NCBI GenBank assembly: GCA_965221125.1
Contig: CBDCRW010000004.1
Span: 960,001 to 1,024,000, forward strand
Length of the DNA stretch: 64,000 nt
Origin: Alphaproteobacteria bacterium
Lineage (GTDB): Bacteria > Pseudomonadota > Alphaproteobacteria > UBA828
Direction: 5' to 3'
Of the stretch, positions 46,214-52,110 are shown in pieces. Each line of letters opens with the position of its first letter. Within the stretch, counting starts at the first letter, position 1. Below the pieces are notes generated by a model. It was not told the DNA's origin and searched no databases. It saw nothing but the letters and a program-made list of their open reading frames with translations. The position numbers were made by a program, and so were the translations under genes.

Positions 46214-46724
46214 TCATGGTTCGGGCCAGCCCCCAACCCGGTGCTTCGCCGCCCCGCCGAAGAATGCGAGGCACGCACGGGCCAGTGGTCTTTGCCGTCC
46301 CTTTGCCTTGAGCGCTGCATGGAAGCACCGGCCGGTCTCGACAAATCCGCCGGCCTGCATGACCAGTGTGCCGGCCTCCACGTGCCATCCGATCAGGTGA
46401 CGCCAGCCGAGCGCGATGCCGCGACCGGCGACGGCGGCTTCCAGCGCATGGGCGTGGCTCTCGACGATCTTGTACTGCGGTCCCGCAGTCGGGCGGCCCG
46501 AGACCTCGAACCAGCGGTCCCAGGATGCCCCGGCCGCGTTGGGGCCCGTGAGAGCCAGAAGGGTCAGGCCGCCCCATTCCGCCACCGGCCCGTTCAGGAC
46601 CTGCGCATGAACTGCGGCGTACGCCGGTGAGCAGAAGGCGGCCAGCGCCTCCCTTGCGATCGCCACGCGGTGTTTGGAGGGGGCAATCTCGCCGTCACAG
46701 GTCAGGATCACGTCGGCGCAGGGC
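46214..46724 (-). pseudogene. LysR-family regulator, 3' part (interrupted by the transposon)
   Basis: Substrate-binding-domain motifs (CSPAY, W..WF, ALEAAVAGRGIALGW). Joined to 51351-51790 it gives an open 316-aa LysR (...SLPSEP-CADVILT...). Confidence 0.88.
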
Positions 46725-47093
46725 TGTTGTTTTCCGGTCTAGCCGGATAGAAGCACGGGTTTTTTTCTCACTTTGATTGGTTGGTGGATTTCCCGGGATG
46801 GTGGCCGAGTGCGGGAAGGACGCTGCCTGCGGCATTTTTTTGATCCTCAGCAGAATCCTCATTGCTGTTGAAGCTGTGGAGCGGTGGGCGCGAGATCGGC
46901 GAGTGTGGTCAGGCGGTGGGCAAGCGCCAGCTTGTCCACGGGCTGTCCACACGGTCCGCAGGACGCCGATCGGTCCGCAGGACGCGTCCACGGCTCCACA
47001 GCTTGGCGGCGGCGGGGAGCGTCCGTAATCTTGGCCTCTCACTGAACGACAAAGAGAGGCCCGGGGGACGGAACTCCCGCCGGGCCAGGGCCG

Positions 47094-47729
47094 GTGCAGC
47101 TTCGCTACGAAACGGGGCTCACCAGCGAGGAATACGTTAAGACCGAGGCGTGGCGCGACGCAAGGCTTGAGCGCTGCCCGAATCACCCGCACGGCGGATG
47201 TTCTGTGGCAAGCCACGGCACCTACGAGCGGAAGACCCCGCCCGGCGCAAGGGTTCCTCGCTGGTATTGCCGTGAGAGCCATACGACCATCGGCCTGCTG
47301 GCCGACTGTCTGGCGGCGCGGCTGCCGGGCACGCTCGATGCGCTGGAAGCGGTTGTTGTCGTGGCGGAGGAGGCCGGCAGCCTGGAGGAGGCAGCGGACG
47401 AGGTGCGCTGCCCCGAGGACGAGGACGCCATCGAGCTTCCCGGCGCCGTGCGTTGGATCCGCCGCAGGCTGAAGCTTGTGCACGACGCGCTTGTGCGCGT
47501 CATCGGCCTGATCCCCGACCTGCTCGCGGGCTGCGCGCCCACCATGAGCGCGGTGCGCGAGCGTCTGAAGAGCGACAGCGCGTTGATGGAACTGCGCGGC
47601 CTGGTCGCCGGGCAGCTCCGGACGCTACCCGCGCCTCTGGGCTTCCAACCCCACGGCATCGACGTGGGGAATCGCAAACCGCAGTTCCAACAACGGGCGG
47701 GGCCGGACCCGCCGCCGGAGAGTTCGTAG
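47094..47729 (+). CDS. Transposon accessory protein with a Cys/His (DUF6431-like) N-terminal domain
   Basis: CPNH...C....HGTYER......R(W)YC....T..LL.DCL pattern; first gene of the element. Confidence 0.6.
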   Translation: MQLRYETGLTSEEYVKTEAWRDARLERCPNHPHGGCSVASHGTYERKTPPGARVPRWYCRESHTTIGLLADCLAARLPGTLDALEAVVVVAEEAGSLEEAADEVRCPEDEDAIELPGAVRWIRRRLKLVHDALVRVIGLIPDLLAGCAPTMSAVRERLKSDSALMELRGLVAGQLRTLPAPLGFQPHGIDVGNRKPQFQQRAGPDPPPESS

Positions 47730-47774
47730 CGTGACGATCCCGGGGCCAGGGAGTCCCTGAACGAGGATCGCACC

Positions 47775-49103
47775 ATGAACAGCTCAGACGACGACCTTCG
47801 CCAACAGATCGCGCTCTTCCGATACGACGTCATCGCCGATCTGGTGCATCTGCCCGTGGGTGCACCGGGTGCCGGCGCGATGATGCGCGCCAAAGCCGAG
47901 AAGACCTACACGATCCCCGGAACCACCAGGACCCGGGTCGCCGCCGAGACCATGCGGCGCTGGATCAAGGACTACCGCTACGGCGGCTTCGACGCGCTCT
48001 ACCCCAAGCCCCGCACCGACCGGGGGAAGCCCCGGCGGCTGCCGCCCGAGGTCGCCGAGCGCCTCATCGCGCTGAAGACCGAGAACGACGCATTGTCGGT
48101 TCGCGCCATCATCCAGAAGGTCAAGGAGGAGGGTATCGACCACCCGCTCGCCTCGTCCACCGTGCACCGCCTCTTCAGCCGCGAGGGCCTGTTCGACAAG
48201 AAGCCGCCCGACGGGGCGGATCGCCGCCGCTTCGCCTTCCGGCATGCCGGCGAGATGTGGATGAGCGACGTCATGCACGGACCCAAGGTCCGGCACGGCC
48301 GAACCCGGCGCAAGACCTACCTGATCGCCTTCATCGACGACGCCACCCGCGTCATCCCGTTCGCCGCCTTCGCCATGGCGGAGAACACTGCGGCGTTCCT
48401 GCCGGTGTTCAAGGACGCGCTGATCCGGCGCGGCCTCCCGGCCCGCTTGTACGTCGACAACGGAAGCGCCTACCGCTCCCGTCATCTCTCCCTGGTCTGC
48501 GCCAGGCTCGGCGTTGCGTTGATTCACGCAAGGGCGTTCCAGCCAGCGGGAAAGGGTAAGATCGAGCGCTTCTTCCGCACCCTCCGGGCCGGCTGGCTCC
48601 GCCACCTCGGCGATGACGTCGACAGCCTGGAGGCGCTCAACCGCAGCCTCTGGGCCTGGATCGAGGGGGAGTATCACAACAGCCCGCATCGTGGCCTCGA
48701 CGAGGGGCGCACCCCGCTTGAGCAGTGGGCGCTGGCCTCGGCCGGCGTGCGCTATCCCGACGCCACCATGGACCTCGACGATCTGTTCCTCTTCGAGGCC
48801 AGGCGCCGTGTCTACAAGGACCGCACCGTTAGTCTGAACGGCCGCGTCTACGAGGTCGACGCCCTCCTGGTGGGTCAGAACGTCATCCTGCGCTACGACC
48901 CGGCCGCGCCGCCCTCGCGCCCTCTCGACGTGGTCCATGACGGCAAGCCGGCCGGCAAGGCCAGCCCTCTCGACGCCTACGCCAATACCGCCGTCAGGCG
49001 CACCTACCCGGCCAGGGAGATCGAGGCCGAAGATCCGGCGCCCGAGCCTCCGCCCTCGCCGCTGGCCATGCGCAACCTCAAGGACAAGAAGGAGGACGAG
49101 TGA
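47775..49103 (+). CDS. DDE transposase/integrase (rve core + Mu-transposase C-terminal domain)
   Basis: HTH, WMSDVMHG, FIDDATR, LYVDNGSAY, GKIERFFRT, YHNSPH and R.V.KD.TVSL.G..YEV. Confidence 0.93.
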   Translation: MNSSDDDLRQQIALFRYDVIADLVHLPVGAPGAGAMMRAKAEKTYTIPGTTRTRVAAETMRRWIKDYRYGGFDALYPKPRTDRGKPRRLPPEVAERLIALKTENDALSVRAIIQKVKEEGIDHPLASSTVHRLFSREGLFDKKPPDGADRRRFAFRHAGEMWMSDVMHGPKVRHGRTRRKTYLIAFIDDATRVIPFAAFAMAENTAAFLPVFKDALIRRGLPARLYVDNGSAYRSRHLSLVCARLGVALIHARAFQPAGKGKIERFFRTLRAGWLRHLGDDVDSLEALNRSLWAWIEGEYHNSPHRGLDEGRTPLEQWALASAGVRYPDATMDLDDLFLFEARRRVYKDRTVSLNGRVYEVDALLVGQNVILRYDPAAPPSRPLDVVHDGKPAGKASPLDAYANTAVRRTYPAREIEAEDPAPEPPPSPLAMRNLKDKKEDE

Positions 49104-49903
49104 TGTACCTGCGCCACTTCGCCTTCACCCGCCTGCCCTTCGAGACCCCGGCAGAGACCGACGAGCTGTTCGAGTCCAACGCGCGCCGCGAGGCCGAGGC
49201 CAGGCTCGGCCACCTCATCGACCTGCGCGGCATCGGCCTGCTCACCGGCGAGGTGGGCTCCGGCAAGACCACCGTGTGCCGGCATCTGACCGCGCAGCTT
49301 CATCCAGGCCTCTACCGGGTCCACTACGTCTCGCTGACCACGGGCAACGTGCTCGACATGTACAAGGCGATCGCGTGGGAGATCGGCCTGCCCATCGAGC
49401 GCTCCCGCGCCTCGGCCTATCAGGCCATCCGAAACGAGATCTCCCGCCTCGTCACCGAGGCCAAGCAGCTGCCGGTCCTCGTCATCGACGAGGCCCATCA
49501 TCTGCGCAACGACGTCCTTGAGGACCTGCGCCTGCTCACCAACTTCGCCATGGATGCAGAGCAGCGCCTGTGCCTCGTCCTCGTCGGTCTGACCGAGCTC
49601 AGGCGCCGCCTGGCCATGGCCATGCACGAATCCCTCAGCCAGCGCCTCGTCGTCCGCCACCACCTGAGCGGTCTCGACCGCGACGAGGTCGACGCTTACA
49701 TCAAGCACCGCCTCAGGCTCGCGGGATGCGAACTGCCGCTGTTCGAAGAGCCCGCCGTCGAGGCCCTGTTCCAGGGCGCGCGCGGCCTGCCGCGCCAGAT
49801 CAACCGCATCGCCCACTACGCGCTCTCCGCCGCCGCTCTCGACGAGGCGAGGACCGTCAGTGCCGACCACCTGCAGCACGCGCTCGAGGAACTGCGGCCA
49901 TGA
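49103..49903 (+). CDS. ExeA/TnsC-like AAA+ ATPase
   Basis: Walker A GEVGSGKTT, Walker B VIDEAH and G.PR.IN. TGATG overlap with the transposase. Confidence 0.9.
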   Translation: MYLRHFAFTRLPFETPAETDELFESNARREAEARLGHLIDLRGIGLLTGEVGSGKTTVCRHLTAQLHPGLYRVHYVSLTTGNVLDMYKAIAWEIGLPIERSRASAYQAIRNEISRLVTEAKQLPVLVIDEAHHLRNDVLEDLRLLTNFAMDAEQRLCLVLVGLTELRRRLAMAMHESLSQRLVVRHHLSGLDRDEVDAYIKHRLRLAGCELPLFEEPAVEALFQGARGLPRQINRIAHYALSAAALDEARTVSADHLQHALEELRP

Positions 49904-50940
49904 CCGGCTTCCCGACCCGCGCCCCGATCGAGCTGGAGGAGCGGCCGCGCGAGCAGCAATGGCTGGTGGACACGCTATGGGGCGAGCAGGCCGTCGGCAT
50001 CGTCGGCGGCGAGCCGAAGTGCGGCAAGTCCATCCTGGCGCTGGACCTCGCGGTCGCAGTCGCCGCCGGCGTCCCATGCCTGCGGCACTTCGCCCCGGCC
50101 CGGCCTGGCCCGGTCCTGCTGTTCGCCGCAGAAGACGCCGGCCACCTCGTGCGCAAGCGCCTGCAGGGGATCGCCCGCGCCGCAGGCGCCCGCTTCGAGA
50201 CCCTCGACATCGCCGTCATCGACGTGCCCACACTGCGCCTCGACCATCTCGACGACCGCCGCCGCCTGCAGCAGACCGTGGAGCGCATCGCACCGCGCCT
50301 CGTGGTCCTCGACCCCCTGGTCCGCCTGCACGGCGTGGACGAGAACACGGTTGCGGACGTCGCCCCGATCCTCGGCTTCCTGCGCGACCTGCAACGCCGC
50401 TTCGAGACCGCCGTCCTCCTCGTCCACCACGCCCGCAAGAGCGGGGCCACGAGGCCGGGGCAGGCCCTGCGGGGCAGCAGTGAGCTGCACGCCTGGGGGG
50501 ACTCGAACCTCTACCTGCGCCGCCGGGACCGGCAGACCCTCATGACCGTCGAGCATCGCGCCGCACGCGGTCTCGACGACATCGAGATCGAGCTCAAGGA
50601 AGACGGAGAGGAGCCCTCCTTCCGGCTGCGCCAGCCGCCCACGGCCGGCGGCGGGGCGCCTCAGCCCGAAACACCCGAATGCCGCGTTCTCAAGGCGCTC
50701 GCCGACGCCGGGGCGCCGCTCTCGCAACGCCAGATCCGGGAACGCGCCGCGACCCGGCACAAGACCGTCGGCGTAATCTTGCAAAAGCTCGTCCAGGAGG
50801 GTCGCGTCGCGCGCAACGCCGAGGGCGGCTACAGCGTCGTCGCAGGCGCAGCGGACAAGCGGGCGGCGGCCGCCGCCGCCAACGGCAGCAGTCGGCCGCA
50901 GGCCCCGCGGTTCCCGGAGCCCGGTTCCGCCAACGCCTAG
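49900..50940 (+). CDS. AAA_25 / RepA-like (RecA-fold SF4) helicase with a C-terminal winged helix
   Basis: WLVD.LW, GEPKCGKS..ALDLAVAVA.G, VLLFAAED, LVVLDPL, VHHARK and LRGSS. C-terminal PLSQRQIRE...KTV..ILQKLV.EGRV. ATGA overlap with the ATPase. Confidence 0.85.
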   Translation: MTGFPTRAPIELEERPREQQWLVDTLWGEQAVGIVGGEPKCGKSILALDLAVAVAAGVPCLRHFAPARPGPVLLFAAEDAGHLVRKRLQGIARAAGARFETLDIAVIDVPTLRLDHLDDRRRLQQTVERIAPRLVVLDPLVRLHGVDENTVADVAPILGFLRDLQRRFETAVLLVHHARKSGATRPGQALRGSSELHAWGDSNLYLRRRDRQTLMTVEHRAARGLDDIEIELKEDGEEPSFRLRQPPTAGGGAPQPETPECRVLKALADAGAPLSQRQIRERAATRHKTVGVILQKLVQEGRVARNAEGGYSVVAGAADKRAAAAAANGSSRPQAPRFPEPGSANA

Positions 50941-51345
50941 GGGTTCGAGCCGGAACCGCCGTCGGGAACCACCCTTCCCCAACGGTCCGGAAGGCGCTGC
51001 GCCTCCACCGGGATACTACGTCAGGTGAGCGGCCAGTCCGTGGCCGGAAGCTTGCTTCAGGCCATGGCAGCACTTCGTCGTGTGGACGGTGGCGAGTCAC
51101 CCGAAGGGCCGAAGCGAAGCGCAGGAGCGGCGCAGCCGCTTGACGCGCCGACGGCCGCGCGACACCTCGTCAGCTCTCCTCAAGCACCAGTCCAAACCTC
51201 AATCAGACAGCGACCCCGGACCGCCCGCAGAGACCATGAGCTCCTACGCTTCGATCCGGAAAAGACCGAGCAATCTGGGAAATCAGGGCAGCGATCACGT
51301 CAAATAATCTGGGAGATTCGGCGTCAAATAACGTGCGAAACAACA

Positions 51346-51790
51346 CGGGCTCGGACGGAAGGGAGGCCGGGGCCTCTGCGTGGGCGAGAATACGGACCCG
51401 GACCCGCTCCCCGAGCGCGGCCTTCAGTGCATCGTACCGCTGCATCACGAAGAGATGCGAAACCTCCTCCGGGCAGGCGATCGTCACCTCCGGCGGGCCG
51501 CTGCCCGAGAGAGCACCTACTTCCTCGGTCCCGTCGTGTAGGGCCGCGAGGCCGACAACGACGGCCGCGTGAAAGCGCCGCCCCGCCTCGGTCAGGGTCA
51601 CGCCCGTGCGGGAGCGCTCGAAAAGCCGCACCGAGAGGTCCGTTTCGAGCCTCGCGATGTATCGGCTCATCGCCGATTGCGAGGTCCCCAGCTCCAACCC
51701 TGCCTGCGAGAAGTTGCCGAGCCGCGCGGCGCTCTCGAACGCAAGCAGGATGCTGGTGGATGGAATGCGGTAACGCCCGCGATCCTTCAT
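51346..51790 (-). pseudogene. LysR-family regulator, 5' part
   Basis: LLAFESAARLGNFSQAG.ELGTSQSAMSRYIARLE..L..RLFER...GV.LTEAG. Confidence 0.9.
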
Positions 51791-51819
51791 GGATACTGCG
51801 TTAGGCGTGTCCTGGCCGG

Positions 51820-52110
51820 CGATCAAGAGCAATTCGGTGGTACCCTTGGCGCAGACAAGTTGATGCACTCCCTCGACAAGGCGCTGGCCCATGCCAGCAG
51901 CGGAGGCTCGGCTGTCGTTCGTGGGCACGTGAGCCCTCGGGAGGCCCGCAAGCGGGCGAAACTCACGCCGGCGCAGATGGAACCGCCGATGGACATGAAC
52001 CCGGACCGCTGCTGGAAGCGGGTGCAAGGAATGTGGTGGGTCAGTGACCCGGCGGCGATACTGCTGCGGGCGATCCCGATGGAGGCGGAATTTGGCGAGC
52101 CTTACCGTCT
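51820..52110 (+). pseudogene. Degenerate XRE/HigA-like HTH gene
   Basis: L..SL..ALAHA.....PRE.RKRAKLT.AQM...M......K..QG...VS.PAA.LLR resembles a decayed XRE antitoxin. Confidence 0.4.

Follow-up and report, generated by a model that had tools for sequence, protein, structure and literature searches.

Several well-studied bacterial transposons pair a DDE transposase with an AAA+ ATPase, among them Mu, Tn7, Tn5053, Tn552 and IS21, and to our knowledge all of these are described as needing host replication or repair to finish transposition. Here an element with the same pairing is analysed, which lies in a stretch of 64,000 nucleotides (the window; positions 960,001 to 1,024,000 of contig CBDCRW010000004.1, GenBank assembly GCA_965221125.1) from an alphaproteobacterium of the UBA828 lineage. 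The element occupies positions 46725-51345 of the window (4621 bp), begins with the letters TGTTGTTTTCC and ends with GAAACAACA. Its core is a non-site-specific, recently expanding transposon with TGT...ACA ends and 5-bp target duplications, which encodes a Cys/His protein (OrfA), a Mu/IS481-like DDE transposase and a MuB/TnsC-like ATPase. Downstream of this core lies a fourth gene, hel, which codes for a putative helicase and is accompanied by an inverted array of hexamers. Judging from related loci, hel is an optional, exchangeable accessory module, neither a substitute for TniQ nor ordinary cargo, and in this module status, as in the anatomy of the element, our confidence is high. The element is rated as a member of a Mu/IS481-like transposon family with a portable helicase-plus-site module, for which no previous description was found; likewise, no publication was found that treats these elements or reports a gene for a helicase within an IS21 or Mu-like transposon, in a search of incomplete coverage that did not include the ISfinder and TnPedia pages.

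The core resembles Tn552/ISBli29, Tn5053, Mu and IS481, but it lacks their defining features: its four proteins include no resolvase and no TniQ, and the score with the IS481 model stays below the cut-off. The Tn552/ISBli29-ISArsp14 group, which is filed under ISNCY in ISfinder, combines a Mu-family transposase with an ATP-binding protein and a resolvase. Like Tn552/ISBli29, the window element has a gene for a DDE transposase with a Mu C-terminal domain, followed by an overlapping AAA+ ATPase gene, and a plasmid relative from Methylobacterium (28.8% identity) has the same transposase-ATPase pair flanked by recombinase genes. The transposases are, however, only 21-29% identical, and the window element has in addition the Cys/His gene upstream and the helicase gene downstream; unlike both Tn5053 and Tn552, it shows no serine resolvase (TniR/BinL) among its four proteins. 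With Tn5053/Tn402 and the Tn7-like transposons it shares a transposase with rve and Mu-transpos_C domains, an AAA+ partner, a 5-bp duplication, TGT termini and subterminal repeats, and we take the terminal TGTTGTTTTC to resemble the Tn402 repeat. The matches to TnsB and TnsC models are weak, and the ATPase scores 20.8 bits with the TniB model (cut-off 22.4). Unlike Tn5053 and Tn7, the element contains no match to TniQ/TnsD/TnsE or TnsA and shows no attachment-site specificity, and its transposase is much smaller (442 amino acids) and scores best with the IS481 model.

In common with phage Mu, the element has an ATPase whose best PHROG family is 'DNA transposition protein', a 5-bp duplication, near-random targets and a replicative outcome (20 identical copies). 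Mu uses host restart proteins for the loading of DnaB; the window element, unlike Mu, is not a phage and encodes a helicase itself. IS21 likewise combines a DDE transposase with an AAA+ regulator as a two-component system, and eight sampled homologues of hel lie directly after IstB. The window transposase, however, reaches only 43.1 bits with NF033546 (cut-off 160), and the ATPase is of the AAA_22 type with no match to IstB (PF01695); the accessible parts of two accounts describe IS21 with two genes only (PMC11208146, PMC3281130). IS481 provides the best-scoring transposase model and has TGT...CA ends, but the score of 201.9 bits lies under the cut-off of 224, and the window transposase carries an extra Mu C-terminal domain and always occurs with an AAA+ partner and a Cys/His protein. 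Members of IS481 can carry passenger genes, as stated in the available part of one report (PMC6794481). From the same partial source, TnRErm46 of Rhodococcus was considered as a relative and rejected, being an ordinary IS481 element with a 333-amino-acid transposase and a CTAG target.

The four genes of the window element lie on the forward strand in the order orfA (47094-47729), transposase gene (47775-49103), ATPase gene (49103-49903) and hel (49900-50940), as an earlier note on this stretch had read them, and the last three are indeed linked: the transposase stop and ATPase start codons overlap as TGATG (49101-49105), and the ATPase stop and hel start codons as ATGA (49900-49903). A gap of 45 bp separates orfA from the transposase gene. 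In Pfam the 442-residue transposase shows HTH_32, rve (41.9 bits, cut-off 32.6) and Mu-transpos_C (31.6 bits, cut-off 21.7) domains; its best NCBIfam model is the IS481 model NF033577 mentioned above, and its match to TnsB_V-K of PADLOC is weak (E-value 2.6e-7). The gene is present in twenty identical genomic copies. The helper ATPase (266 residues) is MuB/TniB/TnsC-like, with matches to AAA_22 (95 bits, E 5.7e-27), to TniB below the cut-off (E 2.9e-4) and to TnsC_V-K of PADLOC (E 9.5e-4), and with PHROG 296, 'DNA transposition protein', as its MuB-like best phage family (E 1.4e-29). The four proteins match no TniQ, TnsA, resolvase or other recombinase family in Pfam or NCBIfam; many further overlapping frames of at least 50 residues exist in the element, as expected at ~69% G+C, and the resolvase negative covers the four proteins only. 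A search of the organism's own genome for the TniQ family gives no match, though control genomes gave none either.

The boundaries of the element are defined by its copies. Blastn with the element and 300-bp flanks finds 20 full-length copies of 99.85-100% identity in the genome (4.58 Mb on 7 contigs, the window belonging to contig C4), and the similarity of all 20 to the window starts and stops at 46725/51345 within a few bases; the TGT and ACA ends are therefore not a chance pair. The terminal inverted repeat is perfect over 8 bp, with TGTTGTTT at the left (46725-46732) and AAACAACA at the right (51338-51345). In the flanks, which were extracted for all copies, a perfect 5-bp target duplication accompanies 15 of the 20; three others match at just 4 bp, including the window copy, where flank comparison and an empty-site joint give AGGGC on the left (46720-46724) and CGGGC on the right (51346-51350). 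The two remaining copies, at C4:716887-721507 (+) and C4:671960-676580 (-), are inverted with respect to each other, ~40 kb apart, and have reciprocally swapped flanks (CCCTC-element-CGGGG and CGGGG-element-CCCTC). The segment between them has thus been inverted, which is explained equally well by homologous recombination and by one intramolecular replicative transposition. The empty site is seen in contigs of the public runs X1, X7 and X10, which pass straight from 46720 to 51347 and omit 4626 bases, five letters being shared at the joint. Its depth is 9.7 in X1, against ~33-41 for the occupied flanks, and 15.1 in X7, against 14-17; the window insertion is consequently polymorphic and recent. 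The element is a genuine transposon of the TnsB/TnsC-like (Mu-like) kind that has been active recently, and the ends and the 5-bp duplication with one mismatch that had been proposed from the window alone are borne out by the 20 copies.

The product of hel (346 residues) contains a RecA-fold ATPase domain (residues ~30-250) and a C-terminal MarR-like winged helix (residues ~259-313), with Pfam matches to AAA_25 (PF13481; E 1.7e-36, 126.2 bits, cut-off 27) and MarR_2 (E 3.8e-5). A profile of hel relatives matches the RepA helicase of RSF1010 (1g8y) with an E-value of 2.8e-13, and a Foldseek search with the AlphaFold2 (AF2) model (predicted local distance difference test, pLDDT, 62) places RepA (1nlf_A, 8e-10) at the top, followed by RadA, KaiC, DnaB and Rad51; in PHROGs the protein matches primase/helicase families. 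The sequences GEPKCGKS and VLDP, which we take to be the Walker A and Walker B motifs and which do not vary in 19 sequences, and the sequences DEN, HHARK, LRGS and WGDSNLYL are invariant down to a homologue of 46% identity. The protein is thus a RecA-fold ATPase of the RepA(RSF1010)-like kind, joined to a winged helix, and a putative helicase. RepA is its closest solved relative by profile and by fold, a likeness that extends to the AAA_25 primase-helicases of phages and plasmids. Unlike RSF1010 RepA, to which it is ~20% identical, Hel has the C-terminal winged helix and putative cognate hexamers, and it occurs in transposons rather than replicons. With respect to the window copy, the ratios of nonsynonymous to synonymous substitution rates are 0.22-0.31 for hel, 0.17-0.33 for the transposase gene, 0.07-0.22 for the ATPase gene and 0.28-0.31 for orfA, and hel is under purifying selection comparable to that on the transposase. 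No PADLOC defence-system model matches Hel, and tblastn at E 1e-5 finds no match in 72,556 plasmids. A complex prediction for the ATPase and Hel scores 0.00, which counts neither way. Representatives of the Hel family with 549-658 residues show no second domain and are probably upstream extensions of the open reading frame (ORF). Only in P0124 (597 residues, one metagenome contig) does a single ORF fuse an AAA_22 ATPase and an AAA_25 helicase, either because the two genes have truly merged at their ATGA overlap or because of a frameshift in the sequencing.

The surroundings of hel homologues reveal how the gene travels. A second, very distant element, in locus L087, has the same gene order at 27% (transposase), 32% (ATPase) and 45% (helicase) identity, and its helicase was used as seed for a metagenome scan, of whose 563 relatives the 80 best were taken, so that the sample is not a random one. 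At 64 of these loci the sequence before the helicase gene extends over 900 bp or more, and in 64/64 a helper-ATPase gene lies directly upstream. The ATPase is of the AAA_22 type in 56 loci, with the full four-gene order in 34, transposase-ATPase-helicase in 20 and the ATPase only in 2. The other eight loci belong to the IS21 family, with IstA (rve and Mu-transpos_C_2), IstB (E 1e-61 to 1e-77) and the helicase in this order; two of these, L170 and L174, represent the same IS21-type element of 4102 bp with different surroundings, and hel lies inside the element, 67 bp from the right end. Since the best 80 of 563 are not random, 400 evenly drawn genomes of the phylum were also searched with the helicase profile. 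Strong full-length matches occur only in 3 genomes (plus one fragment), all three in the order transposase-ATPase-helicase, whereas this order is found at 0/25 of the remote AAA_25 matches, limited to the ATPase domain, in the same genomes. On a larger scale, phmmer against 1.84 billion representatives yields 478 hel clusters at E <=1e-30.

The helicase tree does not follow the type of the carrying element. Among 76 distinct helicases the backbone types are interleaved, and the starred branches of the tree require no fewer than 3 placements for the IS21-type and 2 for the window-type elements. Seven window-type hel sequences group as a single clade within the D-type ones, and in L104 a D-type helicase is found on a backbone of the window type (transposase 63%, ATPase 79%). 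At the sampled loci hel always stands directly after the helper-ATPase gene, across at least four DDE-plus-AAA+ backbones including IS21. The junction itself is conserved in a part of these: a 4-nt stop/start overlap (1 nt in one D-type) is present in 12/14 window-type and 45/54 D-type elements, against 1/9 T-type and 0/9 IS21-type elements. The view that hel lies inside the element, with its translation coupled to that of the ATPase gene, is thereby supported, the ATGA-type overlap being kept in 57 of the 68 window- and D-type elements.

Seen from the transposase, hel is optional. A scan with the transposase alignment, restricted to one genome per species, gives 78 loci of 60-98% identity, many of them multicopy, in metagenome-assembled genomes (MAGs) whose labels include Alpha- and Gammaproteobacteria, Spirochaetia, Dehalococcoidia, Poribacteria and Acidobacteria, among others. 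A tblastn search with all four proteins of the window element detects orfA, transposase and ATPase genes in essentially all 78, and hel after the ATPase gene in only 13, each with a transposase identity of at least 78%. In the transposase tree (46 rows) the window-type hel elements all fall in one 16-row clade (Shimodaira-Hasegawa-like approximate likelihood ratio test, SH-aLRT, 100), which comprises 10 rows with hel, 3 without and 3 undecidable; the remaining clades are helicase-less wherever decidable. Helicase-less elements measure 3.3-3.6 kb, have TGTTG termini and 5-bp duplications, and show a perfect in-register duplication in 23 of 40 copies with both ends. In one of them, L028, homology to the window ends at the ATPase stop codon and returns in the terminal 95 bp. 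A more distant plasmid relative from Cupriavidus (39.6%) encodes a DUF6431 protein, a transposase and an ATPase, and no helicase. Because multicopy relatives without hel make the same 5-bp duplications, hel is not a replacement for TniQ and is not needed for transposition of the family. The proposal in the earlier note of a helicase in place of TniQ is therefore abandoned: the constant third component is the Cys/His protein, and hel is an optional fourth gene of one transposase sub-clade only. Its further idea that the helicase is core machinery rather than cargo holds as far as coupling, selection and fixed position are concerned, but not with regard to indispensability, as hel is absent from most relatives.

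Some further observations concern the distribution of the family. Elements from near-identical to 60% identical (L023-L100) occur in MAGs of many phyla, a host range that binning errors could inflate; this suggests wide horizontal spread of the element in sponge-associated communities. In a transposase search of 300 sampled genomes of the class, 2/301 are positive, the organism's own genome included. At L030:10120-14135 a window-type element carries a hel that is apparently broken (two overlapping frames), and it is followed after ~300 bp by another element, which has three genes and a transposase identity of 53%, the two representing nested or adjacent insertions.

The second part of the module is the hexamer array, which in the window (50909-50970) straddles the hel stop codon and is a candidate binding or loading site of Hel. 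It consists of GGTTCC-N8-GGTTCC (50909-50928), an inner GGTTC, and GGAACC-N7-GGAACC (50952-50970), and occurs once in the element and exactly 20 times in the genome, one per copy. Inverted arrays of 2-3 tandem hexamers just after the hel stop codon are found in D-, T-, IS21- and window-type elements, with GTTTCC/GGTTCC repeats, a CTATAG/CTACAG-like centre and GGAAAC/GGAACC repeats. The palindromic form, by a strict pattern, is present in 33/72 unique downstream regions, compared with 77/2880 random windows of the same loci, and at least two tandem GGAA units in 46/72 compared with 148/2880. Between the ATPase gene and the right end of helicase-less relatives the array is found in 0/14. The energy of its hairpin is not unusual (z -0.53), so that the signal lies in the repeated sequence and points to protein binding rather than a mere stem-loop. 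Rfam and sigma-70 promoter scans found nothing. The left arm of the array also encodes the conserved, disordered C-terminal tail 'RFPxPGS' of window-type Hel proteins (50900-50937), and it may be the DNA site, not the protein, that keeps this tail conserved.

Our preferred explanation, held tentatively and with somewhat less than even confidence, is that hel and the array are an exchangeable initiator-helicase and its cognate site, which aid replication of the element during transposition. The winged helix of Hel would bind the hexamer array, where the ATPase domain would assemble as a ring helicase and open the element DNA; RepA of RSF1010 assembles as a ring. A replication fork could then cross the element without the helicase-loading pathway of the host, with the branched strand-transfer intermediate or a copy-out step as the point of action, and the outcome would be a more efficient, host-independent replicative transposition. 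For this replication-helper mechanism taken by itself our confidence is a shade lower. Its background is that the element has no TnsA-like nuclease and no resolvase and hence, going by the known Mu/Tn7-type and IS3/IS21-type pathways, must transpose replicatively or by a copy-out route. IS21 and IS3-like elements are thought to use a replicative copy-out step, according to the part available of 10.1101/2023.06.07.543989, and IstB is named as a paralogue of the helicase loader DnaC in the accessible text of PMC11208146. It is suggestive, and fits the mechanism without proving it, that the module is attached to backbones whose helper ATPases are related to helicase loaders. In its most extended form the explanation states that the RepA-like helicase with its winged helix and the iteron-like hexamer palindrome are a portable replication cassette, repeatedly exchanged by IS21 and at least three Mu/IS481-like lineages, which would load inside the transposon, drive the replicative step or replicate a circular intermediate, and free the element from host helicase loading and restart; we regard this as possible, though doubtful.

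A parallel exists in the insertion sequence excision enhancer (IEE), which is encoded outside the insertion sequences on which it acts. Unlike IEE, a PrimPol-helicase and excision promoter, Hel belongs to a different fold family and its gene lies inside the transposon. Like Hel, IEE is a replication-type enzyme that has been proposed, in the part of the source available, for the copy-out step of insertion sequences (10.1101/2023.06.07.543989).

Several findings weigh against a role of hel in replication. The element encodes no primase or polymerase. For transposition of the family hel is dispensable: relatives with only the three core genes are present in at least 10-13 copies per genome, and three helicase-less lineages are nested in the helicase clade. 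Circle junctions or abutted ends are absent from the genome assembly and the loci, where the few CAACA...TGTTG matches look like chance or nested copies, and no go-back joint is among the run-contig joints listed, contigs being unable to show rare forms. In X1 the element words are ~11 times as deep as the flanks, a figure lower than the 20 copies of the assembly, and give no sign of extra replicating copies; the elevated read depth and circular junctions envisaged in the earlier note were thus not found. The hairpin energy of the array is unremarkable, the metagenomic hel loci are those best 80 of 563 relatives, and both the helicase activity of Hel and its binding to the hexamers are predictions. 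In favour, the ideas of the note that the helicase may unwind DNA during replicative transposition or replicate an excised form gain some support from the array travelling with hel.

Two other explanations, each of which we consider unlikely, account for part of the same evidence. One of them is that hel and the array are a minimal replicon, an initiator-helicase with its origin, by which an excised or copied-out circle would replicate for a time as an episome and amplify the transposition intermediate. A winged helix, a ring-helicase-type ATPase and adjacent iteron-like repeats make up the layout of initiator-helicases known from phage P4 alpha and the viral E1 and LTag proteins, and the array is specific to hel-bearing elements. 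Moreover, the hel backbones include IS21, which is reviewed among the families with circular intermediates in the available part of 10.1101/2023.06.07.543989. The episome, however, shares with the preferred explanation the lack of a circle junction in assembly, loci and the run-contig joints listed, the X1 depth without excess over the 20 chromosomal copies and the lack of a primase gene, and terminal overlaps indicating a circle are found in 0 of the 80 metagenomic contigs.

The other explanation, about as improbable, is that Hel acts through the array near the right end as a regulator of copy number, immunity or expression, or that hel is a selfish passenger with an unrelated benefit. Winged-helix proteins with palindromic repeat sites are typically repressors, and hel is dispensable, having been lost or gained within the window-type helicase clade; passenger genes are, in addition, on record for IS481-type elements in the accessible parts of PMC6794481 and PMC10045372. 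A plain repressor, however, needs no conserved RecA-fold ATPase with invariant catalytic motifs, PADLOC offers no defence-system model for the protein, and the exclusive, fixed position after the helper ATPase in four backbones, with conserved coupling, is unlike that of unrelated cargo.

Target choice, finally, gives no evidence for selection by Hel; the element is non-site-specific. The sites of the 20 insertions are scattered across 6 contigs and show a weak C-C-N-G-G bias within the duplication with an information peak of 0.40 bit, and the orientation agrees with the local GC skew in 9 cases and opposes it in 11, without bias. The same weak C..GG bias is seen among the helicase-less relatives, and the suggestion in the earlier note of a new target selector is not supported. 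That Hel would replace TniQ/TnsD/TnsE and direct insertion to replication forks or to a sequence is therefore very improbable: its DNA-binding domain, its co-translation with a TnsC-like ATPase and the missing TniQ match in the element (and in the genome, where control genomes also gave none) are outweighed by the dispersed and unoriented sites, by helicase-less relatives that share both the 5-bp duplications (23/40 perfect) and the bias, by the movement of the module between backbones with unrelated ATPases (AAA_22 and IstB), and by the position of the conserved DNA motif inside the element and not at the targets.

A better candidate than Hel for a TniQ-like role is OrfA (211 residues), whose gene is the first of the family and stands upstream of the transposase gene in nearly all of the 78 related loci, which makes it the constant third component. 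The residues C28, H31, C36, C59, H63 and C72 are conserved in 28 relatives. OrfA of the window has no Pfam or NCBIfam match, and DUF6431 (PF20020) does not match it even at E 10; 4 of the 28 relatives match this family weakly (best E 0.027), and the positional counterpart in the Cupriavidus element passes its cut-off (28.5 compared with 26.6 bits). DUF6431-bearing clusters also make up 28 of 30 ESM Atlas matches of OrfA, which is a lead only. The protein is hence best regarded as a distantly DUF6431-like Cys/His protein. A fold search of its AF2 model (pLDDT 80) against the Protein Data Bank gave no match at E <=0.001 and nothing TniQ-like among the rows. The first gene of D-type elements codes for a protein with a Cys cluster and HTH_23 in 18 of 20 members, and as its profile agrees with that of window-type OrfA at a probability of only 3%, the two are treated as positional counterparts only.

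If the preferred explanation, assistance to element replication by an exchangeable helicase and its site, is true, a replicative-type helicase borne by a transposon together with its cognate site would add a new type to the accessory functions of such elements, one that is conserved, selected and swapped between families, and it would give direct experimental access to the copy-out step or to the poorly understood stage at which the replisome takes over from the transpososome. Independence of the host could then help to explain the presence of the element in MAGs of many phyla. The 478 helicase clusters, labelled only 'AAA family ATPase', represent a large and essentially unannotated element family, which multiplies on a massive scale in bacteria from the environment and from sponges and interrupts their genes, in the window a LysR regulator.

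The interrupted LysR-family gene lies on the minus strand, with its substrate-binding part to the left of the element and its HTH_1 part to the right. The C-terminal fragment (46214-46724) matches LysR_substrate with an E-value of 6.8e-8, and the N-terminal fragment (51346-51787, start approximate) lies in an ORF (51203-52027, minus strand) that matches HTH_1 with 7.6e-19; the uninterrupted form is present in run contigs. Both ends of the element, bounded by the comparison of the 20 copies, are non-coding (46725-47093 and 50941-51345). The right end contains subterminal repeats, TTATTTGACG twice and CCCAGATT twice, read on the reverse strand, and comparable repeats occur in the right ends of related elements. 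In the left end, an inverted repeat of 22 nt with 91% complementarity (46871-46892 and 46983-47004) adjoins a direct repeat of GGTCCGCAGGACGC.

An IS256-type insertion sequence of 1453 bp, with a Mutator-like transposase of 409 residues, has 14 copies in the genome, and IS256-type insertions lie inside three copies of the four-gene element (C5:758404-759855, C6:194951-196404 and C7:276233-277685); part of this insertion sequence is also present in locus L015. Internal skips within the element in run contigs are confined to isolated contigs of low depth whose sides are short. Contigs of a metatranscriptome library from a sponge (run X18) fall mainly on the two non-coding ends of the element (46725-47336 and 51150-51346), two of them starting exactly at 46725, a weak hint of transcription, maybe of a leader or small RNA, in which the strand is ambiguous and carry-over of DNA possible. 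As a lead to the habitat of the element, runs labelled as sponge or marine metagenomes (among X5-X16) contain at least half of its sampled words.

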